Positions 1 to 10,989 of a stretch of 64,000 nt of DNA are shown here, one piece after another (position 1 is the first letter of the stretch; each line of letters begins with the position of its first letter). The stretch comes from Flavobacteriales bacterium. GTDB lineage: Bacteria; Bacteroidota; Bacteroidia; Flavobacteriales_F; PHOS-HE28. The notes beneath the pieces were generated by a model. That model saw only the letters and a program-made list of their open reading frames with translations. It ran no database searches and was not told the origin of the DNA. Where the stretch lies: contig JADJAA010000002.1 of assembly GCA_016704485.1 (NCBI GenBank), positions 239,591 through 303,590 of the forward strand, written 5' to 3'. The translations under genes and the position numbers were made by a program.

Positions 1-2165
1 TAGGAAGTACCCGCATTGTTCGTGATAGTGTCCGCGCCGATGAGGAGGCCATCGGGCCCCGTGCCGTGCACGAGCCGCACCGCGTAGCTGAAGGGTCCTT
101 CGATGCCGTAGAGCGATAGGATGAAACGCTCCAATCGTCCGCTGAAGGCTGGGGTGAAGGACTGCCACATAACGGTGCCTGGGGAAGCTGTGCCTTGTTC
201 GCCGGAGCTATAGCTGCCAAAGCCGGTGTTCTGGTCGGTGAAGGTGATAGTGTCCAACACTTCGTCGAAATAGTACCTGGCCATGTGCGCACCAAGGCCA
301 AGGGCCAATGGGTTAAGCAGGCTATCACGAATACCATCCACCGTGATGTATCCGCCGAACGGTTCGCCGGTCAGGATGAAGGGTTCAGCATTTATACAGA
401 GCGGCGCGTTGATGGCGGGAATACTGAGTACGGGTGCGGCGACCGTGATGATGGATAGTGTGGTGTCCGTGCAACCGAACGCGGTGTTGATGTAAGTGAG
501 TTCATGGGGGCCTTCACCGAGGGAGGCGGGTAAGAAACCATTCGTATTTACCCCTTCGATCCAGATCTCGGCATCCGGTGAGAAGTCATTGTCGCCGAAG
601 AGCCACACGGTATCAACCTCGCTCACGCAATAGGCATCGGCGAGGTTGAGCATGTAATGCGGCGGCACTTCGTAAAGGGAGTAGTAGCGGATAGCACTCT
701 GGCACGGTGGTAGGGCATTGACCCATGTGCGGAAGGCGGCATCGTGGTATGCATCCACGCTACTCGTGCCACGGGTGTAGTCGTAATAGGCCCAGTTGGT
801 ACCGAAGCTCAGCACTTGCCGGAAGGCATGTTCAGCGGTGAGTTCCACCGTGTACATGGTATCCGCGTTCCATGGAACCAGACTGCTGACGGGGAAGGTG
901 ATCCAACTTGTATCCATGATCGCGGGCGACGCGATCATGCTTTCGTGAAGGAGCACCGCACCGGCACCAACGCCGTGATATACACGCAGCGTGAAGTTGT
1001 TCGGCAAGCTATCGTGCAGCATGAATTCCACTTGCGTCAAACGACCGGTCTCGCCCGCGCGCACCGTTTGGCGAATGCTGTCCAAGAGCGCGTAACTGTA
1101 GGTATAGTTGCCGTAGTAGTCATACAGGGTGTACGACTGGTCGATGTGTTCCGAGCTATCCAACGGGAGGTCATTGGGTGAATACGTCACGGAATATTCG
1201 CCCGGAGTGTTCGGCGCATTCATCAACGTGGTGCCGCTCACCAAGGGTCCATCAAAAGTGCCGGGGCCAGGCGCAGCGGAGAGTTGGATGGAAGGATGGT
1301 TATGGCATTGGCGTGTGTCGAACGCATCGATGGCGATCGACACGGGATCTGAATGGAGATCGGTCTTCACGAAGTCCAGCACGTACTGCATCACCTGCGT
1401 TTGGCCGGTTGTAAAGAGGTTGTTGTCGCAGGGCGAATAGCACATGATGTTCGTTGTCTGCGGCATGTAGGGATCACCGTTCGCGTCGGTGCTGGTGCCG
1501 ATGTACGTGCAGTTGGCATAGTCGATCATCCCGGCCAATCCAAGGTTGGGATCTGCAGGCGTGTCGCAGATCTGGTCACCGCCGATGGTGCAGTTGGAAC
1601 CGTCCACCAGCTCGGCTTCGAACAATGCGTCGTGTGTATGCGGAAGGCCGAGCAAGTGACCGACCTCATGGGCCAGCACACGCGGGTTATCCGCGCCTTG
1701 CAGGAAGACCAAGTTGCCGAAGTTGAAGCCCGCCAAACCGTTGGGCAATAGTGCCACGTAAACCAACGTGACATAGCCCGGTTCGTAATACGGGTTCAGG
1801 ATCTCCGGGTCGAAGTTCCACAGCGCATAGAGGTTGTCGTTATCCACTACCTGCACCGGCCCACACAGCTCGAATTGGATGTCCGTGTTGTTCTGTGCGT
1901 AAAGCGCGTTCGTGCCATCGAGGTCGCGCTGCACCGCGCTGGTCGTTACAGCATCACCACCGGGCCCGCTCAGTGAGGCAATGATCACCTTCACCTTCAG
2001 GTAGCGCGTTCCACTGCGGCCGGGGTGATAGTTACGCGCTGCTTGAATGATTTCCGGGGAAACGGACGAGGTGCTGTTGCACCAGATACCGCTGGTCTGG
2101 GAGTGGAGCAAAAGCGGAAAGAGACTTTGAAGAACACCGACCAGGGCGAAGATGAGAAAGCGCAT
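1..2165 (-). CDS. Secreted metzincin zinc metalloprotease (M43 pappalysin/cytophagalysin-like); 3' end runs off window start
   Basis: Continuous reverse-strand frame from ATG at 2163-2165 (MRFLIFALVGVLQSLFPLLLHS signal peptide) down to position 1. Contains HEVGHLLGLPHTHD = HExxHxxGxxH metzincin zinc site. Absent from the ORF track because no stop lies inside the window. Plus-strand ORFs 195-1751 are antisense artefacts. Confidence 0.75.
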   Translation of the reverse strand, partial: MRFLIFALVGVLQSLFPLLLHSQTSGIWCNSTSSVSPEIIQAARNYHPGRSGTRYLKVKVIIASLSGPGGDAVTTSAVQRDLDGTNALYAQNNTDIQFELCGPVQVVDNDNLYALWNFDPEILNPYYEPGYVTLVYVALLPNGLAGFNFGNLVFLQGADNPRVLAHEVGHLLGLPHTHDALFEAELVDGSNCTIGGDQICDTPADPNLGLAGMIDYANCTYIGTSTDANGDPYMPQTTNIMCYSPCDNNLFTTGQTQVMQYVLDFVKTDLHSDPVSIAIDAFDTRQCHNHPSIQLSAAPGPGTFDGPLVSGTTLMNAPNTPGEYSVTYSPNDLPLDSSEHIDQSYTLYDYYGNYTYSYALLDSIRQTVRAGETGRLTQVEFMLHDSLPNNFTLRVYHGVGAGAVLLHESMIASPAIMDTSWITFPVSSLVPWNADTMYTVELTAEHAFRQVLSFGTNWAYYDYTRGTSSVDAYHDAAFRTWVNALPPCQSAIRYYSLYEVPPHYMLNLADAYCVSEVDTVWLFGDNDFSPDAEIWIEGVNTNGFLPASLGEGPHELTYINTAFGCTDTTLSIITVAAPVLSIPAINAPLCINAEPFILTGEPFGGYITVDGIRDSLLNPLALGLGAHMARYYFDEVLDTITFTDQNTGFGSYSSGEQGTASPGTVMWQSFTPAFSGRLERFILSLYGIEGPFSYAVRLVHGTGPDGLLIGADTITNNAGTS

Positions 2166-2560
2166 GTGTTCTATCACTGTCGATGGTGCTGGAGTGACGC
2201 GAAGATGCGGAAAGGAGTTGTCCGTTCGTGCTGCTGTGAGGAAAAGAATTTCAGGGCCACTTTACAACTCAACAAAGTCTACTACGCTTTGGTGGGGACC
2301 GTGCGGTCAAGACCAAGAACGCAAGGTCCTGAAGCGGTACCCTTGCGGAGAGTTAGTACACATGCGTGACGACAGTAATAAGGAAGTATACGAACAGTGA
2401 GCTGCAAAGGTTATCGATCACCTGGGCCAAGCAGCCGGAAAATGTACCTCGCAAGCTCCAGCGGGATGCGTGCGATCCATGGCCCAACTAGTAGCCCATT
2501 GCCTACAAGTAAGTGGTATTTAACAATGCGAGAAACATTTTGTTAAAGGATCACGCCATT

Positions 2561-2982
2561 TTCTTCTTTGTCTTTTTCATTTTCTCCTTTGTACTTGCGG
2601 CAAGTTCCTTTGTCTTTTTCATTTTCTCCTTTGTACTTGCGGCAAGTTCCTTTGTCTTTTTCATTTTCTCCTTTGCACTTGCGGCAAGTTCCTTTGTCTT
2701 TTTCATTTTCTCCTTTGTACTTGCGGCAAGTTCCTTTGTCTTTTTCATTTTCTCCTTTGTACTTGCGGCAAGTTCCTTTGTCTTTTTCATTTTCTCCTTT
2801 GTACTTGCGGCAAGTTCCTTTGTCTTTTTCATTTTCTCCTTTGCACTTGCGGCAAGTTCCTTTGTCTTTTTCATTTTCTCCTTTGTACTTGCGGCAAGTT
2901 CCTTTGTCTTTTTCATTTTCTCCTTTGCACTTGCGGCAAGTTCCTTTGTCTTTTTCATTTTCTCCTTTGTCTTTTTCATTTT
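2561..2982. repeat. 42-bp tandem repeat, ~10 copies (internal 21-bp periodicity of TCCTTTGT)
   Basis: The unit ttctcctttgtacttgcggcaagttcctttgtctttttcatt repeats head-to-tail. The only variation is T/C at gtacttgcgg versus gcacttgcgg. The 42 bp = 14 codons, so every frame gives a 14-aa periodic ORF (e.g. MKKTKELAASTKEK on the minus strand). Confidence 0.95.
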
Positions 2983-3375
2983 GGCAAAGCACTTTTTGGT
3001 TTTGCCCTCGCAATTGGCGGTGCTCTGCCCTCAAACCGGCGTTCTTCGCTGCCAAATAGCGTCGGCACGCGCCGTTTCGACCGGATTACTTCGTTTGCAG
3101 TGGGATCTTCATTTAACAGCCCCTCCGCGCCGTAAAGGAGGCTCCCGATTTCGAATACTTCAAGTCGGGACGGTCGGAGCTCACGATGGATCTTTCGGCG
3201 GAGTGGTCGGCTGGATGGCCGGAGGTCGGAATGACGATCGTGCCAGCCCCAACAGGACTGTGTTCCCTCTTGATCTATACGAAGAATGGGCTCCGTTTGG
3301 TGCATTTTGCGAAGGTGTAATGGGGAATAGGGTGGTGTAAGTGACTATGGGTCAGGCTGCTAAATGTGGCCCTAT

Positions 3376-3704
3376 GTTGACCTCATGTTCATGAACGTTG
3401 CCTCCCATGTTCATGAAGGTTGCCCTCACTGTTCATGAAGGTTGCCCTCACTGTTCATGAAGGTTGCCTTCACTGTTCATGAAGGTTGCCCTCACTGTTC
3501 ATGAAGGTTGCCCTCACTGTTCATGAAGGTTGCCCTCACTGTTCATGAACGTTGCCCTCACTGTTCATGAAGGTTGCCTCCCATGTTCATGAACGTTGCC
3601 CCTCATGTTCATGAAGGTTGCCTCCCATGTTCATGAACATTGCCCCTCATGTTCATGAAGGTTGCCTCCCATGTTCATGAACATTGCCCCTTAGGTTCAT
3701 GAAC
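3376..3704. repeat. 22-bp tandem repeat array A (~15 units, consensus GTTGCCCTCACTGTTCATGAAG)
   Basis: Direct head-to-tail 22-bp units. Variants ctccca/ccctca/ccttca and gaag/gaac alternate in places as a 44-bp higher-order repeat. 22 is not a multiple of 3, so the array is non-coding. Confidence 0.95.
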
Positions 3705-3968
3705 ATTGCCCACCATGTCATACGACATTGCCCACCATGTCGACTGTAGTTGCCCACCATGTCGACTGACGTTGCCCACCATGTCGACTGACGTTGCCCA
3801 CCATGTCGACTGACATTGCCCACCATGTCGACTGACATTGCCCACCATGTCGACTGACATTGCCCACCATGTCGACAGACATTGCCCACCATGTCGACTG
3901 ACGTTGCCCACCATGTCGACTGACATTGCCCACCATGTCGACTGACATTGCCCACCATGTCGACTGAC
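3705..3968. repeat. 22-bp tandem repeat array B (~12 units, consensus (A/G)TTGCCCACCATGTCGACTGAC)
   Basis: Contiguous with array A. Units share the (G/A)TTGCCC head, but the tail changes to ACCATGTCGACTGAC. Transitional units are visible at 3683-3748. Confidence 0.95.
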
Positions 3969-4499: not shown

Positions 4500-6124
4500 G
4501 ACCTTGATCACATTATGGGGAAGGGAATCCCGTGCGAGTTGGGTACACGGCCCGGGCCACATGGGTGATACTTCCAGAGTATTGGCTTGGCCCGGGTGGG
4601 TAGACAACGCAGGGTCCCGAAGCGGAGACTTATTCTATGTTAAAAACAAGCATAACGTAAAGTTTTTTTCAGGCATTAGGACTCCAGCCATGAACCAAGG
4701 ATGAGGCCCACCCTTGATCCATGTTGTTGGCCGTTGCCATCATGCCTATCCCTGTTAGGTTGCTCTTCAGCAGAGCCTGCTTCCGTTTGGACACGACATA
4801 CGAAGTACGGCAATCCGATCAATTCTGCACTAATTGCCGCTGCTCATAGGGCCGGTTGTTGCGGATCACGGCGCAAACACAATGGATGATCTTATTACGG
4901 ACCGCATTGACAACCAATATCGGCTTCTTGCCTTCAGATACTTTGCGTTGGAAGTAGACCTTTAATTCTCCTTCGCGTTGCACGTTGGCAAGTGCAGCCA
5001 TGTGGAGCATGGTCTTAAGGATCTTGTTGGCTTGATGTGATACTTGCGTTCGTCCGCGAATACTGCTACCAGAACTACGCTCAAATGGAGCTACACCAGC
5101 ATGACATGCCAGTTCGCGTGGGTTCGTAAATCGATGGAAGCCATCGGTGAGCGCGATCAAATAGCTCGCTAATTGTGGGCCTACGCCGGGGATCGTGAGC
5201 AACAGGTTGTATTGTTCACTGGTTATATCATCGGCTTTGATCTGTGCCATGATCAGTTGCTCTACGCGTATCACGGCACGATCAGAAGCAACGATCAAAC
5301 GCTTGTCAAGTTGGTCGAACGCCTTTTTAATGTCCTTGTCCATGTAGCGGTTCAGGTCCGAGAGATGCTTCTTGTACATGGCTCTGACGCGAACCAAGTG
5401 TTGCCTACGTGTGAGCAGGTGCTTGAGTTTATCGAGCTTGAGGTTCTGTGCTGTGAACAAACGTGTTTTCTCTCGAAATGTGCGTGCGTATTGCGCGATC
5501 CGCAAAGCGTCCACTTTGTCGTTCTTCACACGCTTGATGCCCATGCTCTTTTGTATATCGAGCGGGTGCGCCAACCAAGCATGCCAGTGCTGCTCCACGA
5601 TCAGATTAAGCAACATCAACGTATAGTGCCCGGTAGGTTCCAAACACACTAGGCATTCCCCGGTGTCAACTCCGTATCGTTTCTTCCAGCTGTTCATTAG
5701 CGTCATTACGGCTGTACGACCATTGCTTACTTGCAAGCTCTCCAAGTGAACACCGTGTTCATCGAGCAATGCGAAATCCAAGGTTGCACTGCTCACATCG
5801 ATACCGATCCAATGCTTCATTTTCGTTTACTTTGAGGTTCAACAAATGATCGCTGTTGAGGCTGAGCGACAGGTCCGATGCTCCATGACTCTAATAGGCC
5901 CTTACGCCTAGCATTCTATCCGAGCCTTAGACCTGAGAAAGCCAGAGGTACCCATAAGTCTCTTAGGGGCTTTAACCCTAGCTGCGGAGTTGGTTCACCC
6001 CTGGCTTGGCTCAGTTCTCTTCAGTGATCTATCGACATCTAAGAAAATAGTTCCTTAGTGACGATGCAATACTAGAGCCTGCATAGGGTTAGTGGTCAAG
6101 TGGGCGTGAAGGCTCCGCGGCATC
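4500..6124 (-). mobile_element. IS110-family insertion sequence, approximate extent including non-coding flanks
   Basis: The transposase is flanked by about 300 bp of structured, GC-rich non-coding DNA on each side. The family has no terminal inverted repeats, so exact ends cannot be set by eye. Confidence 0.35.
4819..5820 (-). CDS. IS110-family transposase (DEDD N-terminal domain + IS116/IS110/IS902 C-terminal domain)
   Basis: 333-aa ORF with ATG start. N-terminus WIGIDVSSATLDFAL and C-terminal LLTIPGVGPQLASYLIALTDGFHRFTNPRELACHAGVAPFERSSGSS are both hallmark IS110-family transposase motifs. Confidence 0.85.
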   Translation of the reverse strand: MKHWIGIDVSSATLDFALLDEHGVHLESLQVSNGRTAVMTLMNSWKKRYGVDTGECLVCLEPTGHYTLMLLNLIVEQHWHAWLAHPLDIQKSMGIKRVKNDKVDALRIAQYARTFREKTRLFTAQNLKLDKLKHLLTRRQHLVRVRAMYKKHLSDLNRYMDKDIKKAFDQLDKRLIVASDRAVIRVEQLIMAQIKADDITSEQYNLLLTIPGVGPQLASYLIALTDGFHRFTNPRELACHAGVAPFERSSGSSIRGRTQVSHQANKILKTMLHMAALANVQREGELKVYFQRKVSEGKKPILVVNAVRNKIIHCVCAVIRNNRPYEQRQLVQN

Positions 6125-7399
6125 TTAATACGTTTGACCATCCGCCTTCAGAACCACAATACTTTCCCTTAGTGCTGGAACTTCCGTCGAATGTGCTTCA
6201 TGATTCCAATGTTGGCCTGAGCTACGTAAACGGCGAATGACCTGTACTTCCTGCGTAAGCCAACCTACCTTTTCAGCGATGTCCGCGAGGATAAAATCCA
6301 CGGGGATTACCACTCCGGCATATGCGGAGGTGCCAACGGCAATTTTTAGGACCGCATCTGGTTTTGCTCTGTTCCGAAGGTTCTTCAATAGTCCGGCCAT
6401 GTCTTCAAAGTAGGCTTGAATCATATTGGGGATGTTCGGATTCCAAAGTTGCTCCTTGCGCACAACTAACTCTTTGTATGCTTTTGCATAGTTGATACCG
6501 AAGTCGTCATTAAATGGCTTCGCCCAGGCTGCTTGCACATGCGACCGGACCGTTTGGAGCCGAATATTCATCAAGTCTGCGTTAGTGCGAACAAAACCGC
6601 CCAAGAAAAGCTCCGGCCTATAGACATCTGTGTAGTCGAAGGAGTTCAAGTAAGGCGGTGATGTGACACAGAGGTCGAACTTTCGTATATCCCTGTGTGT
6701 ACTGAGCCGCCGCGCATCCATGCGCTCAACACTGGACTTGGAACCAGATATTGGGGCTGCTACTACGTCCTCCTTCATCATAGCAATGTATGCCTCGTAT
6801 GCGCTGAGAAAAGAGGACGCATTGAATGACCGATAGTTGTCCATGCGCTTGTACCGGAGGCATTTGCCATCAGGATACGCATTACAATTATCCATGGCTG
6901 CCTTCATAAGCGCCAAACGGCTTAACGATCGCTCAGGACGTGCGAAACGTTTGGTGGAATCCCAGCCTCCCATGAAGGATCGAAGTACGGACCTGTTGAA
7001 TAGCCATTTACTCTTGCCTCCAGCTTGTGAGAAGGTGGAATAGGACTCAAGCGAAGTCTTCAGAGGCTGTCGAATGCCCTTGACCGTCCACTCAAACGCG
7101 TTTGAAAGGATACGGGGCGTTGATTGTTCAAGTTTGGCCTGACCAACAAAAGCGAGGAACGGATTTACTTCAAAGGCAAGGCACTCAACTCCACTTAAAG
7201 CATATTGCAGAGGACTAGTGCCGGAACCGCTGAAAGGCTCTATGGCGAAAATCCCATTCCGTGGTGTGTGATCGACCTCTGAAAGTGCGTCCGTAATTAG
7301 AGAAGCACTGAAGCCCTCCTTAATTGGGTACCATCGATGACGAGGCAACACCATGTTATCTACGGCATTGGTAATTGAGCGAACTGCATGTTTTGGCAT
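6125..7399 (-). CDS. DNA amino-methyltransferase (N6-adenine or N4-cytosine; SPPY motif IV), fourth gene of coupled operon
   Basis: 424 aa. Motif I IFAIEPFSGSGTSPL, acidic beta-2 end CLAFEVNP, motif IV LCVTSPPYLNSFDY. The ATG at 7397-7399 lies 2 bp after the upstream gene's stop at 7402-7404. Confidence 0.7.
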   Translation of the reverse strand: MPKHAVRSITNAVDNMVLPRHRWYPIKEGFSASLITDALSEVDHTPRNGIFAIEPFSGSGTSPLQYALSGVECLAFEVNPFLAFVGQAKLEQSTPRILSNAFEWTVKGIRQPLKTSLESYSTFSQAGGKSKWLFNRSVLRSFMGGWDSTKRFARPERSLSRLALMKAAMDNCNAYPDGKCLRYKRMDNYRSFNASSFLSAYEAYIAMMKEDVVAAPISGSKSSVERMDARRLSTHRDIRKFDLCVTSPPYLNSFDYTDVYRPELFLGGFVRTNADLMNIRLQTVRSHVQAAWAKPFNDDFGINYAKAYKELVVRKEQLWNPNIPNMIQAYFEDMAGLLKNLRNRAKPDAVLKIAVGTSAYAGVVIPVDFILADIAEKVGWLTQEVQVIRRLRSSGQHWNHEAHSTEVPALRESIVVLKADGQTY

Positions 7400-7401
7400 A
7401 C

Positions 7402-8466
7402 TTAGGCTTCTAAGAAAAGGCGGATTGGTTTTTCAAAGTCACTTCTTGTGGAATGGTAATCTGGGTTATAGGTGATTTCGCGTGTCGCAAAATGACATTG
7501 CTGTTTAGCTGTTAGTGATTTGGTGCTCGCCTTTACTCCATGGCGGCGACAGTCAAAAACAACGAGATAACCCAACGTGTCCGAAGCAGGACTATTTCGC
7601 TTGTGATTGTCAAGGTAATTCGCAAGTTGCTCTGCACCTTTATTTGCACGTGATTCGCCATAGTTGGCAGTGAATCTTGCACCATCACCACTACGGGATT
7701 TACCAATCCACTTAATTTCAATAAGTGCCTCTCTCGTAGACATCTGGGCTGTTAACTTGATGTCAATCGGATGGCTTTCATCGATATTTTGTTCGGGGCG
7801 AACCCAATAGTCATCAAAGCGCATACAACAGCGCAGGTAATGGCTAAGAGAGGTACGTAGCCGGTGTTCTGGTCCTGGCCCGAACCAGAAGCGTCTATCT
7901 GGATCTTGCCAAGCTTCCCGCAAAGTTGGGCATGTAGAGTGGCGAGCTAGGCTATGCCCGTAATCCAGCAGGGCTTCGCGCAGGTCATCAAAATGATGAA
8001 GCAGGAACTGACTTGGTGCCCCAGGTAGGAATTTGTCAACAGTCAGGCATTGTTCGCCAATCCGAAACTCCTCGACCTCTTGAACTAAACTGTAAACAAT
8101 AGCGTCGGTCTGGTTTTGAAGGGGTGAGTTTACATTCCCTTTCCAAAGAAATGCAGTTCCGTCTGGTCTTATCTCAATTGCTGCCAAATCGAGTACGCCG
8201 TTGATGGTTTTACCATTGAGAATTCGTTCGGCTTGGACAAGGCGCTTCTCATCAAGTTCCGAATGAATTCCTATTGGGGCAAAGACAGTGAGTTGCGTTT
8301 TTCGATTAACACGGCAGAACTGGCCTTGAATGCGAAGAAAGTTCAAGAGCTGTTTAAGCCGTGTGACACCCTCTTCACCAAACACCTCTTGAGCCTTTAT
8401 TAATGGCTGATTCGCCAATGCGCGATGCATGACGTCTGTATCAATTTTCCTAGTTGCTATGCTCAT
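7402..8466 (-). CDS. Hypothetical protein with PD-(D/E)xK-like nuclease motif (candidate restriction/effector nuclease), third gene of operon
   Basis: 354 aa. HPIDIKLTAQMSTREALIEIKWIGK gives D then E-x-K with 15-residue spacing, characteristic of the restriction-endonuclease fold. Its start overlaps the upstream gene's end by 17 bp. Confidence 0.5.
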   Translation of the reverse strand: MSIATRKIDTDVMHRALANQPLIKAQEVFGEEGVTRLKQLLNFLRIQGQFCRVNRKTQLTVFAPIGIHSELDEKRLVQAERILNGKTINGVLDLAAIEIRPDGTAFLWKGNVNSPLQNQTDAIVYSLVQEVEEFRIGEQCLTVDKFLPGAPSQFLLHHFDDLREALLDYGHSLARHSTCPTLREAWQDPDRRFWFGPGPEHRLRTSLSHYLRCCMRFDDYWVRPEQNIDESHPIDIKLTAQMSTREALIEIKWIGKSRSGDGARFTANYGESRANKGAEQLANYLDNHKRNSPASDTLGYLVVFDCRRHGVKASTKSLTAKQQCHFATREITYNPDYHSTRSDFEKPIRLFLEA

Positions 8467-9049
8467 GTGTTCGGCCTATGGTAAGCAAGTATTCAAGCCA
8501 AGCGGAGAGTGGGAGGGAAAGGTCACTACCTTGATAGGGTAGCAGTTCCCTGATTTCCCCAAATGTATCATGGAGTCTATCTACGATTGGATCACTGAAC
8601 AACCAAGCTGTTTGGGCGTGTCGCTTAATAAATGCAAGTGCGGGCTCGTAAGCAAAAGCTTCACGGATGACACTCGGTGTGAACAAGAGCAAGCAATCCG
8701 CTGCTCCGTTGAGGTAGGCTAACCTTTCTTGATTGATAGTGTGTTCCTTCCAAATACCTAGGTTGGTTTGTCCATCAGAAGTAATCTGTAGTAATTCTCC
8801 ATGATCCGTGATGTCACCTATACGTATACAGTAATCCAGTGCATCATCAAGGTTTTTCGAGAACGGCAAGCCTGATGGAGTGGAGCTAAATTCATATTCC
8901 CAATCTGAAACTGGTTTGCCTCCGTACAATGACAGCAGGCAGCTTGCGTAGGCAAGTAGGTGTAACTCTGATCTTGAGAAGCCCCTAACCGTTTGTGTCA
9001 GTCGTGAACCCAGTAGGAGCGAGTCAAAGTATGCTTGCGGACTGGTCAT
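8450..9049 (-). CDS. Hypothetical 199-aa protein (candidate 'middle component'), second gene of operon
   Basis: The ATG at 9047-9049 overlaps the ATPase stop at 9046-9048 (ATGA). No recognisable catalytic motifs. Predicted soluble. Confidence 0.6.
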   Translation of the reverse strand: MTSPQAYFDSLLLGSRLTQTVRGFSRSELHLLAYASCLLSLYGGKPVSDWEYEFSSTPSGLPFSKNLDDALDYCIRIGDITDHGELLQITSDGQTNLGIWKEHTINQERLAYLNGAADCLLLFTPSVIREAFAYEPALAFIKRHAQTAWLFSDPIVDRLHDTFGEIRELLPYQGSDLSLPLSAWLEYLLTIGRTHEHSN

Positions 9050-10989
9050 ATATTTCTGGAGTGTGCGAGTGCATCCAGCGCATTCAAGCGATTCTCAAAT
9101 TCTGCTTCATGCTTCTCTTGCACTTCAGACAGTTCGCGCCACTTATACAGGCGATGGAGTCCAAACCCGAGACTCGATTGCTTCGCAATCTCGGTGAGAA
9201 GTTCAGAAGTGTTGATGTTGGCTGTCATGAAGACAGGGTGTCCGTCATTGGCGAATTCAGCCACCATTTGTCCGGCTTGTGACTCATAAGCTAGATCAAG
9301 ACTGCCTTCTGGTGTATCTATGTAAAGGGGAGCTTTGATGGTATCTGATGAAACGTAGTTAGCTAGCGCCATTCTTAGTGCAATGTCGATGAAGAAGCGC
9401 TGACTTTCGGAGAGGTCATGCTCCGCATGTCGCTGTGTCTTCTTCACTGTTAGCGCCAGAGTAACACTCTTATCGCGCGTTTCGAGTTGGATATCTAAGT
9501 CGACACCCAGAAAGAGATTGGCTAAAGTGTTAAACTTAGGAACAAAGTCTTCCTGAATATTCAGGTATTCTTGCTCTAGCTTTTTTTGTATTTGCTTGTA
9601 AGCTTTAGAAGCTTCGGCACTTTTACTCTTCTGCTTCAAACGCTCCTTATCGATTTCGGCAATAGTTTTCTCATATGCTGCAATGACTTGATCATGATTA
9701 GCGTCCACCGGTCTGCCTCGGTTAACAACATCTCGATTTTGCTCTTCAAAGGCGTCAAGCTCTGTTTGCACAGTTTCAAGTGAACGTACGCGTATGTCAT
9801 TTTCGACATCAAGCTGAGTGATAAGGAGCACACTGGAATCGACACGCTTTTTCTGTTCGGCCAGTTCCTTATCAAGCTCTTTAAGGCGCTGGTGCACAGC
9901 TGCCGGAATGGTAGCCCGGTCAGTTGCAGCTTTGCACAGTGGACAAGTATGCTCCGCAATAGCCTTTTTTACAGGCTCTACAACTGCGATGCCCTCAGTA
10001 CCGCAAATAGCACATTTGTGCTCAATTAGTGCGAGCTGGATTGCGGGTGCGTTCTCTACTGAGTGCTTTGCCGTCACGCGTTCGCTGAACTCGCGTTGGT
10101 AGTCGTTTCGAATGACGGAAGCTCGTGCAGCGCCTTCAGCAAGCGCGAGTTTGGCATCGCGCAATTTGGTTTGAATTATATCGACCTCATTTGATCGTTC
10201 TTTCACTCGGTCAAGGAGTGTCTCAAATTCTTCATATGTGCTTGCCTCATCGTCTACAAGTTCATTCCCGCTGAGTACCTGTCTGAGGCTGTCAAGCCGA
10301 TCTTTTTGCTGTGTCATGTTCCAGCGCAGATTTCGAACCCTTGAATCCGCCTTTTCCATTTCACGTCTCAGTCTTTCCGCATCTGCCCGCTGTTCATTAT
10401 CAATTCCTACAAACAGAAGCAAGCAGGTTTCTAGAACTTTCGGATCCCAAAACAATAAATGACGTCGTTCATCAAAAGTGAGCACGAATGATTGGATGAA
10501 GACAAACTCCTTGAACGTTGAGAGTCCGATGTGCTGAGTTAATACGGCCTGATAATTTGCCTCCCGGTCTTCGGGTGTCATCTCATCAAAGTGCCTGGCA
10601 TCGTTTGTAATGACAAGTGACCGCAGCGCATCAGGTTCATCGAATCCTCGAATTAGCGTAATTGTTCGATCTCCGATTGTGAGTTCAAGTTCGATTTCTG
10701 CAATGTCACGGTCCTCAGGCTGTACACGCCCTTGAAAGTAGTCCTTGGAGAATCTTGAAATATCTCGGTAGTAATCATCAACGGATACGAACTTTTGTCC
10801 TGGGCGTGGAACAACTCCTGTTAGGCCGTAATTGATGATTTGGAAAAATGTAGATTTCCCAAGACCATTGGCCCCTGCAAGGCATGTCGTTCCAGGTTGG
10901 ATTGAAAATTCAATGTGGTCCTGAAGATTGTACAGCGAGAAGTGTGACAGTCGGATCCGGCGCACAATAGGGAAGTTAAGATGCCTCAT
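9046..10989 (-). CDS. Rad50/SMC-like ABC ATPase with coiled-coil insert and CxxC..CxxC zinc-hook-like site, first gene of operon
   Basis: 647 aa. N-terminal Walker A CLAGANGLGKSTF. A ~270-aa helical, charged central region contains KCAICGTEG and HTCPLCK. C-terminal signature-like LSESQRFFIDIALRMAL, Walker B/D-loop PLYIDTPEGSLD, and H-loop candidate NDGHPVF. Confidence 0.8.
   Translation of the reverse strand: MRHLNFPIVRRIRLSHFSLYNLQDHIEFSIQPGTTCLAGANGLGKSTFFQIINYGLTGVVPRPGQKFVSVDDYYRDISRFSKDYFQGRVQPEDRDIAEIELELTIGDRTITLIRGFDEPDALRSLVITNDARHFDEMTPEDREANYQAVLTQHIGLSTFKEFVFIQSFVLTFDERRHLLFWDPKVLETCLLLFVGIDNEQRADAERLRREMEKADSRVRNLRWNMTQQKDRLDSLRQVLSGNELVDDEASTYEEFETLLDRVKERSNEVDIIQTKLRDAKLALAEGAARASVIRNDYQREFSERVTAKHSVENAPAIQLALIEHKCAICGTEGIAVVEPVKKAIAEHTCPLCKAATDRATIPAAVHQRLKELDKELAEQKKRVDSSVLLITQLDVENDIRVRSLETVQTELDAFEEQNRDVVNRGRPVDANHDQVIAAYEKTIAEIDKERLKQKSKSAEASKAYKQIQKKLEQEYLNIQEDFVPKFNTLANLFLGVDLDIQLETRDKSVTLALTVKKTQRHAEHDLSESQRFFIDIALRMALANYVSSDTIKAPLYIDTPEGSLDLAYESQAGQMVAEFANDGHPVFMTANINTSELLTEIAKQSSLGFGLHRLYKWRELSEVQEKHEAEFENRLNALDALAHSRNI

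Follow-up and report, generated by a model that had tools for sequence, protein, structure and literature searches.

Lamassu-type SMC sensors are seen as devices for abortive infection, which act by setting an indiscriminate effector free, and restriction-modification (R-M) systems are seen as methylation-gated nucleases that are either helicase-driven or stand-alone. Here we describe an operon that joins a Lamassu-like set of three genes to a dedicated DNA methyltransferase (MTase). The operon is located in a 64,000-nucleotide stretch of DNA from a Flavobacteriales bacterium (assembly GCA_016704485.1, contig JADJAA010000002.1, positions 239,591 to 303,590), which we refer to as the window. 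Our analysis centers on its third gene, which encodes a protein of 354 amino acids (aa), called the target protein below. We assign a probability of about 0.6 to the reading that this protein acts as the nuclease effector in a restriction complex that is Lamassu-like, gated by methylation, and encoded by a four-gene defense module, as judged from sequences, a structure model, and analogy.

Lamassu/ABC-3C systems (LmuA-LmuC-LmuB, or DdmABC in Vibrio cholerae) resemble the operon in that they combine an SMC/Rad50-like ATPase, a small partner protein, and an effector composed of a nuclease plus a non-catalytic domain. In the LmuA1B2C1 complex, an LmuB dimer and LmuC use the non-catalytic domain of monomeric LmuA to hold it until DNA ends are detected (10.1101/2025.04.02.646746). 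The same source describes a “short LmuB” type of ~600 aa with 0-2 CxxC motifs and a Walker B motif of the form hhhhD[Q/S/T/E], and it gives the operon order as lmuA-(lmuC)-lmuB. Pfam families exist for the middle component (MC) as well as for the C-terminal domain (CTD) in ABC-3C systems (PMC11707656), and our comparison with ABC-3C was based on these families and on later Lamassu papers. Another system considered, MADS from Pseudomonas aeruginosa, is an eight-gene operon that includes a kinase along with a specificity subunit plus a methylase, and in which Mad6-8 are mandatory (10.1101/2023.03.30.534895).

The genes of the operon and the parts of the target protein are as follows, with all coordinates referring to the window.

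10989..9046, minus strand: SMC/Rad50-like ABC ATPase, 647 aa, matching the PADLOC LmuB model PDLC03859 over its full length (3.5e-23)
9049..8450, minus strand: small “middle component” (MC) protein, 199 aa, of an orphan family without a Pfam, PADLOC, NCBIfam, or PDB match
7402..8466, minus strand (8466→7402): target nuclease gene, an ATG-to-stop open reading frame (ORF) of 354 aa
8032..8466, minus strand: N-terminal domain of the target (residues ~1-145), mixed alpha/beta and poorly conserved
7405..8019, minus strand: predicted C-terminal PD-(D/E)xK nuclease domain of the target (residues ~150-354), with E200 (helix), E225, D235, E250-x-K252, Q280-x3-Y284, and D305-x-R307-R308
7696..7773, minus strand: peptide HPIDIKLTAQMSTREALIEIKWIGKS (residues 232-257), which contains D235, E250, and K252
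7399..6125, minus strand: DNA amino-MTase, 424 aa, matching PADLOC MTase_II (9e-42) and located 2 nt past the target gene

The original prediction had placed a 354-aa protein at 7402-8466, preceded by an ATPase and a small protein and followed by a methyltransferase, but gave no strand. The ORF fits these boundaries exactly on the minus strand, whereas the forward-strand translation of the interval is riddled with stops, and the predicted neighbors are all present on the same strand in tight packing. The MC gene shares 4 nt with the ATPase gene and 17 nt with the target gene. A scan of the operon for sigma-70 promoters and terminators gave results no better than those for shuffled sequences.

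A conserved four-gene module

A survey that used one genome per species (185,579 representatives) uncovered 133 loci, and the best 80 of these were analyzed with hidden Markov models (HMMs) derived from seed loci. The 80 loci are distributed over at least 10 phyla, including Bacteroidota, Acidobacteriota, Verrucomicrobiota, Actinomycetota (Streptomyces among them), Chloroflexota, Proteobacteria, and Planctomycetota, and one locus comes from an archaeal metagenome-assembled genome (MAG). The ATPase gene is directly upstream of the nuclease gene and on the same strand in 77 of the 80 loci, and the other three end at contig edges. Likewise, the MC gene is directly upstream of the nuclease gene in 78 of 80 loci, again with contig edges as the exceptions, and the gene order ATPase-MC-nuclease is preserved in every informative locus.

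A single MTase family is represented within 6 kb of the nuclease gene in 77 of the 80 loci, and its gene adjoins the nuclease gene in most of them. Among these 77 genes, 67 are downstream on the same strand, 3 are downstream and convergent, 3 are upstream on the same strand, and 4 are upstream and divergent. The MTases of the other loci can be aligned with the window MTase over their full length, at 29-76% identity. The gene is missing from locus L065 at a contig end. Because the order of the triad is fixed and the MTase is present within 6 kb at this frequency, the arrangement is not a chance juxtaposition, and the ATPase, MC, nuclease, and MTase genes constitute a conserved four-gene module. 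No description of this module was found in PADLOC v2, Pfam, NCBIfam, or the searchable literature, although the founding ABC-3C paper (Krishnan et al. 2020) may mention it. The new element is a Lamassu-like triad with a dedicated MTase, conserved across phyla and built from familiar parts.

The ATPase from the window carries a Walker A motif (GANGLGKST), a signature-like LSESQ sequence, a Walker B motif (hhhIDTPEGSLD), and a central coiled coil. These three motifs (GANGLGKST, LSESQ, and IDTPEGSLD) are invariant across the ATPase family, and no fewer than 90% of members retain two zinc-hook-like CxxC motifs midway along the coiled coil. With its 647 aa, two CxxC motifs, and a “D-T” in Walker B, the protein fits the description of short LmuB. 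LmuB is also the best PADLOC defense-family match for 30 of the 31 ATPase members, with a best value of 9.7e-31. The mad3 model is matched by 28 of the 31 (best 1.8e-16), some members match DndD and PbeC at ~1e-13, and a weak match to mad8 (7e-5) covers the N-terminal part only. A PDB profile search with the ATPase returned SMC and Rad50 heads, and the solved LmuB structure (9hqu, DUF3732) appeared only at E=0.016.

The small protein is more difficult to place. Its AlphaFold2 model has a predicted local distance difference test score (pLDDT) of 92.4 and a predicted template modeling score (pTM) of 0.90, and it consists largely of helices plus an element resembling a winged helix. The window protein has no Pfam or PADLOC match at E<=1, the LmuC model included, and 34 MC family members yielded no match to the ABC-3C MC families of Pfam and only weak matches to HTH_45. 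Foldseek returned weak PadR/MarR winged helix-turn-helix (wHTH) matches, with LmuC (9ny5_C) at rank 32 (E=1.5, probability 0.16). We therefore rejected the assignment of the small protein as LmuC and do not claim homology, although any kinship of the two folds may be too remote for detection.

In the window MTase, a motif for S-adenosylmethionine (SAM) binding, FSGSGT, precedes the catalytic motif SPPY, with ~185 aa between them. The FxGxGT and SPPY motifs are invariant in all 66 MTases examined, and SPPY may point to N4-cytosine as the methylated base.

Complete loci (66 in number) were also used for an exploratory co-divergence (“mirror-tree”) comparison, which is uncorrected for phylogeny and carries no significance test. 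Pairwise identity of the N-terminal domain of the target family correlates with that of the ATPase coiled coil (rho 0.61), the ATPase head (rho 0.59), and MC (rho 0.52). The corresponding values for the MTase are rho 0.20-0.22, or 0.04-0.05 as partial correlations when controlling for the ATPase head.

The predicted nuclease domain and its family

The target protein gave no significant match in Pfam, PADLOC, or NCBIfam, or in PDB with either phmmer or profile searches, and its family is an orphan that lacks a model in Pfam, PADLOC, and NCBIfam. A word-indexed search retrieved 31 homologues. When 1.84 billion cluster representatives (50%-identity clusters) were scanned in full with an HMM, the family grew to 677 representatives at E<=1e-3, of which 315 reached E<=1e-30. 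Nearly all of the 150 listed cluster representatives are ~350 aa long and share a single architecture, and a few are fragments of 240-265 aa. Searches of plasmid and phage collections with the target protein produced no matches.

The original prediction rested on a C-terminal D...ExK motif, which is indeed present at residues 232-257. A loose version of this pattern (D-x10-20-E-x-K) occurs in 16 of the 31 long ORFs in the window and in 44% of shuffled versions of the target protein. Because the loose pattern is so common by chance, the motif by itself is only a lead. A stricter form in which the residues are flanked by hydrophobic positions (hDh...hEhK) is present in 3 of the 31 window ORFs and in 0.4% of the shuffles. 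At the level of sequence, it is invariance among homologues that raises the motif above chance. Conservation of D, E, and K had been proposed as a check, and D235, E250, and K252 are identical in all 237 aligned family members, as are E200, E225, W253, G255, Y284, D305, R307, and R308. Q280 is kept in 235 of the 237.

The second proposed check, the predicted fold, gave a concordant answer. The AlphaFold2 model of the target protein (mean pLDDT 87.6, pTM 0.73) contains the elements H200-214, E220-224, E236-240, E245-258, H271-291, and E296-305, which correspond to the alpha-beta-beta-beta-alpha-beta order of a PD-(D/E)xK fold. In this model, E200 is on the first helix, D235 opens the second strand, E250-x-K252 is on the third strand, and Q280-x3-Y284 is on the next helix. 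We take this E...D...ExK...QxxxY layout to represent the RecB/Cas4-like flavor of PD-(D/E)xK nucleases.

A Foldseek search with the full-length model found nothing at E<=1e-3 in PDB or BFVD, no fold relative of the N-terminal domain in either collection, and no LmuA among the matches. The interpretable top matches in PDB are the R2 RLE domain, NucS, Hjc, Nt.BspD6I, Can1, XisH, and the DdmD nuclease, and those in BFVD are annotated as “PD-(D/E)XK nuclease superfamily protein”, restriction endonuclease, Mrr, or Holliday-junction resolvase. Single family members have weak Pfam matches to SfsA (3.6e-4), PDDEXK_9, NucS_C, and PDDEXK_4. Among the nuclease homologues, seven match the PADLOC model CARF_PDDEXK (5e-4) and 2 of 31 weakly match a LmuA model (1e-4). 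Each of these matches is weak, yet every interpretable match from Foldseek, Pfam, or PADLOC is to a PD-(D/E)xK nuclease.

The assignment of the C-terminal region to this superfamily is therefore retained, but the domain is larger than originally proposed, spanning residues ~150-354. The N-terminal domain is correspondingly shorter, at ~145 aa and not the ~230 aa first suggested, since both the rise in conservation and the secondary structure of the nuclease core start at residue ~150. Column conservation is 0.18-0.41 in the N-terminal domain versus 0.42-0.70 in the C-terminal domain.

Because the catalytic positions are absolutely conserved, the fold and profile matches agree, and the model has the appropriate topology, we rate it as highly likely that the predicted PD-(D/E)xK fold is accompanied by nuclease activity. 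An alternative is that the domain is a catalytically inert version of the fold that serves only to bind DNA. The weak E-values of the fold searches leave room for this idea, and inactive domains with a restriction endonuclease (REase) fold are known, such as Pfam NA-iREase1, which is present in one neighboring gene. However, invariance of E200, D235, E250, K252, and the QxxxY residues in 235-237 of 237 sequences is unexpected for an inactivated domain, and we consider this alternative extremely unlikely.

Nucleases of the RecB/Cas4 and Cap4/Can1 types share with the target family the E...D...ExK arrangement followed by QxxxY on the next helix. They are also the types hinted at by the weak profile matches (CARF_PDDEXK, SfsA, NucS_C, and PDDEXK_9) and fold matches (Can1, NucS, and Hjc). 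Regardless, none of them is significantly matched by the target protein, and the target family adds the invariant residues E225, W253, G255, and D305-x-RR.

Two loci carry additional genes that resemble those of the module. In L004, a second, distant triad at 34-3879 is located just upstream of the module and encodes a 675-aa ATPase, a 236-aa protein, and a 370-aa protein. The last of these has a C-terminal PD-(D/E)xK-like region whose motifs (PE..., VD, ELK, QxxxY, and DxR) align with those of the target family, with an hhalign E-value of 0.001 and a probability of 21%. This sibling triad hints at a wider “ATPase-MC-(NTD+nuclease)” group, where NTD denotes the N-terminal domain. In L046 (10125-14402, minus strand), a 492-aa ORF on the opposite strand adjoins the convergent MTase gene, and the middle of its product matches the nuclease core (HMM positions 180-307, 2e-13). 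It is followed by a further related ATPase fragment, and this region may be a second, differently built system that shares or flanks the MTase.

Relation to known systems and proposed mechanism

The original prediction offered two choices for the target protein, an R-M endonuclease or an ABC-3C/Lamassu-type effector. Both are supported by linkage, since the nuclease gene is accompanied by an LmuB-like ATPase gene in 77 of 80 loci and by the MTase gene in 77 of 80 loci. What does not hold is the either/or, and the module seems to blend an abortive-infection sensor with an R-M system. Nor can the target be taken as a canonical Lamassu effector. The gene order of the module (ATPase-MC-effector) is the reverse of that in Lamassu, and its nuclease domain is C-terminal with the non-catalytic domain at the N terminus, whereas in LmuA the effector domain is N-terminal and is followed by an ABC-3C CTD. 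Neither the target nor its family members match the ABC-3C CTD families of Pfam, and the Lamassu literature examined describes no methylase, in contrast to the dedicated MTase of the module. Because both gene and domain orders are reversed and the MC and CTD families are unmatched, the module is, by the standard of these sequence families, non-canonical with respect to Lamassu/ABC-3C.

R-M systems also combine a PD-(D/E)xK nuclease with an amino-MTase (FxGxG and SPPY motifs), and restriction by the module would need an NTPase, as it does in Types I and III. However, in those types the NTPase is a superfamily 2 helicase/translocase, whereas that of the module is an ABC ATPase of the SMC/Rad50-like kind, which features a coiled coil as well as zinc-hook-like motifs. 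The module further differs from R-M systems in having a winged-helix subunit, in lacking an HsdS-like specificity subunit, and in having a nuclease whose non-catalytic domain fails to track the MTase in the exploratory comparison described above.

Membership in two other systems was considered and rejected. The ATPase alone matches MADS models (mad3 and mad8), and does so weakly, whereas the other three proteins have no mad matches. Dnd and Pbe systems have an SMC-like ABC ATPase that is related at the 1e-13 level, and they too represent defense linked to DNA modification. However, the conserved core of the module lacks the sulfur-transfer genes DndA/C/E, as well as DndFGH and PbeABD, and its modifying enzyme is a SAM-dependent amino-MTase.

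In the mechanism that we propose, an ATPase dimer and the small protein would form a DNA-sensing scaffold, by analogy with LmuA1B2C1 of Lamassu. The poorly conserved N-terminal domain would dock the nuclease onto this scaffold and hold it inactive, and DNA binding coupled to the ATPase cycle would release or activate the nuclease so that the DNA is cut. Unlike in Lamassu, a dedicated MTase would mark host DNA. Activation or cleavage would thus be limited to unmethylated, foreign DNA, and the outcome would resemble restriction and not abortive infection. The MTase is what sets the module apart from the Lamassu systems described in the literature examined, and R-M-like self-marking is its simplest reading.

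The components of this proposal differ in strength. It is quite likely that the target protein is the effector of an ATPase-MC complex, whereas we lean only slightly toward methylation as the gate between self and non-self. Co-divergence of the N-terminal domain with the ATPase and MC is suggestive and agrees, at the level of sequence, with docking on that complex. This domain does not change in step with the MTase, so the nuclease may not be what reads the sequence. We can speculate that methylation state is instead read by the MTase itself, as in Types I and III, or by the ATPase complex. A more tentative extension is that the module represents a distinct class of R-M system, in which a Rad50/LmuB-like zinc-hook ATPase replaces the helicase motors, a wHTH adaptor and the N-terminal dock hold a non-specific RecB-like nuclease, the MTase, and not the nuclease, recognizes both the sequence and its methylation state, and the SMC-type sensor, gated by epigenetic self-marking, does not provoke abortive infection. 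We regard this version as possible but doubtful.

Several observations weigh against the methylation-gated complex. The triad occurs without the MTase in L055 and L069, where the gene is truly absent, and the MTase appears to have been swapped between otherwise similar triads, as in L058 versus L051. Given a triad that can persist without the MTase and an MTase that appears to move semi-independently, the two may be less tightly coupled than the partners of a true R-M system. The ATPase scores just ~80 bits on the best LmuB model, and ATPase members also match mad3, PbeC, and DndD, ATPases known from systems based on modification. Individual fold matches of the target are non-significant, with best values of E=0.045 in PDB and E=3.4e-3 in BFVD. 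A Lamassu-like assembly is an analogy only, because the small protein and the N-terminal domain have no detectable homology to LmuC and the LmuA CTD. Finally, a defense island is not evident within the 64-kb window.

Some of these points could also be explained by a classical abortive-infection variant of Lamassu, in which replication intermediates or the ends of phage DNA, once sensed by the ATPase-MC complex, lead it to free a non-specific, cell-killing nuclease. The MTase would then have no function as a gate between self and non-self and would be an accessory or regulatory passenger, such as an orphan MTase in its own right or an epigenetic regulator. Such a variant would account for the LmuB matches of 30 of the 31 ATPases, the weak LmuA matches of two nuclease homologues, the two triads that lack an MTase, and the semi-independent exchange of an MTase whose divergence is poorly correlated with that of the triad. 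It is less easily reconciled with a single MTase family that is found within 6 kb of the nuclease gene in 77 of the 80 loci, in different phyla, and whose catalytic motifs are intact in 66 of 66 MTases. Moreover, the MTase accompanies the triad even when its position or strand has changed, and methylases are unmentioned for Lamassu in the literature that we examined. We therefore judge this variant to be unlikely. The opposite simplification is that the 354-aa protein (R) and the 424-aa protein (M) are an ordinary Type II R-M pair that merely lies beside an independent pair of ATPase and small-protein genes. A protein with an REase fold encoded 2 nt from a Type II-like MTase is what such a pair would look like. 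However, the nuclease gene is linked to the ATPase and MC genes, with their fixed order and overlapping frames, more strictly than to the MTase gene, which can be upstream, convergent, or absent. Divergence of the N-terminal domain likewise tracks the ATPase and MC and not the MTase in the exploratory comparison, and families of 350 aa that are this well conserved across 10 phyla are rare among Type II REases. A stand-alone Type II system was rejected on the linkage statistics and is, in our view, very unlikely.

A role outside of defense was also weighed, in which the module would be a machine for DNA repair, DNA modification, or maintenance of mobile elements. It could, for example, process DNA ends in the manner of Rad50/SbcCD, or it could resemble a Dnd-like complex in which the ATPase and the nuclease, acting as a nickase, assist the modification enzyme. 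This would be in keeping with the matches of ATPase members to DndD, PbeC, mad3, and Rad50/SMC heads, and with the frequent location of the operon on Tn7-like and casposon-like elements. In contrast, the patchy distribution (133 matches among 185,579 species representatives), the varied contexts, and the R-M, toxin-antitoxin (TA), Mrr, Fic, and HipA neighbors are better suited to defense cargo than to housekeeping. The conserved core also lacks Dnd, Ssp, or Mre11-like partner genes, and we consider a non-defense role quite unlikely.

An operon that joins an LmuB-like triad to a dedicated MTase suggests that the two defense strategies can be combined. If the methylation-gated complex proposed here is real, it would offer a tractable system for learning how an SMC/Rad50-like ATPase reads “self” marks on DNA. 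The module would also provide names and testable roles for three orphan families that are now annotated just as “hypothetical protein”, and it would extend PADLOC and DefenseFinder, which miss two of the four genes. Because the system is rare, its practical impact would be modest unless the mechanism proves to be unusual.

Genomic neighborhoods of the module

One additional feature of the window flanks the operon, ~300 nt downstream of the MTase gene.

5820..4819, minus strand: IS110-family transposase (DEDD_Tnp_IS110 and Transposase_20)

In a matching MAG contig (GCA_016718615.1, JADKDA010000005.1), the genes for the IS110 transposase and the ATPase are called as split ORFs. These calls may reflect frameshifts in the assembly, since other assemblies show an intact 647-aa ATPase.

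Genes typical of other mobile elements adjoin the module elsewhere. In two metagenomic loci (L008, 5661-11880, and L009, 1-5457), it has Cas1 and a DNA polymerase of family B (PF03175) as neighbors in a casposon-like arrangement, and the module may travel as casposon cargo. Tn7-like genes (TnsA, a Mu-type transposase/TnsB, TniB, and TniQ) are located beside the module in L004 (9561-14795), L006 (7363-11724), and L074 (4397-5731). Other neighbors among the homologue loci include Mrr, YhcG, Fic, HipA, and TA genes. The module fits the description of mobile defense cargo because its flanks carry IS110, Tn7-like, casposon-like, R-M, TA, and Mrr/YhcG/Fic/HipA genes.

In the closest homologue locus (L002, 2624-13887), which is from a Flavobacteriales MAG, the module is positioned between a type I R-M hsdM gene and an hsdR-like gene. 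A cluster for nucleotide metabolism (dNK, UDG, nucleoside deoxyribosyltransferase, and thymidylate kinase) adjoins the module and might point to DNA hypermodification.

The full window (1-64000) contains no tRNA, tmRNA, or Rfam family at the gathering threshold. The G+C content dips to 0.456 at 2001-3000, compared to ~0.50-0.57 in the surrounding sequence, with a strongly negative AT skew (-0.279). A 275-aa ORF without a Pfam match (2513-3340, plus strand) is located in this low-G+C stretch.

The sole locus from an archaeal MAG (L001/L061, 6797-9589) retains an intact nuclease gene, whereas its ATPase, small-protein, and MTase genes are in fragments and are followed by fragments of an rve transposase. 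This locus looks like a decaying copy of the module.

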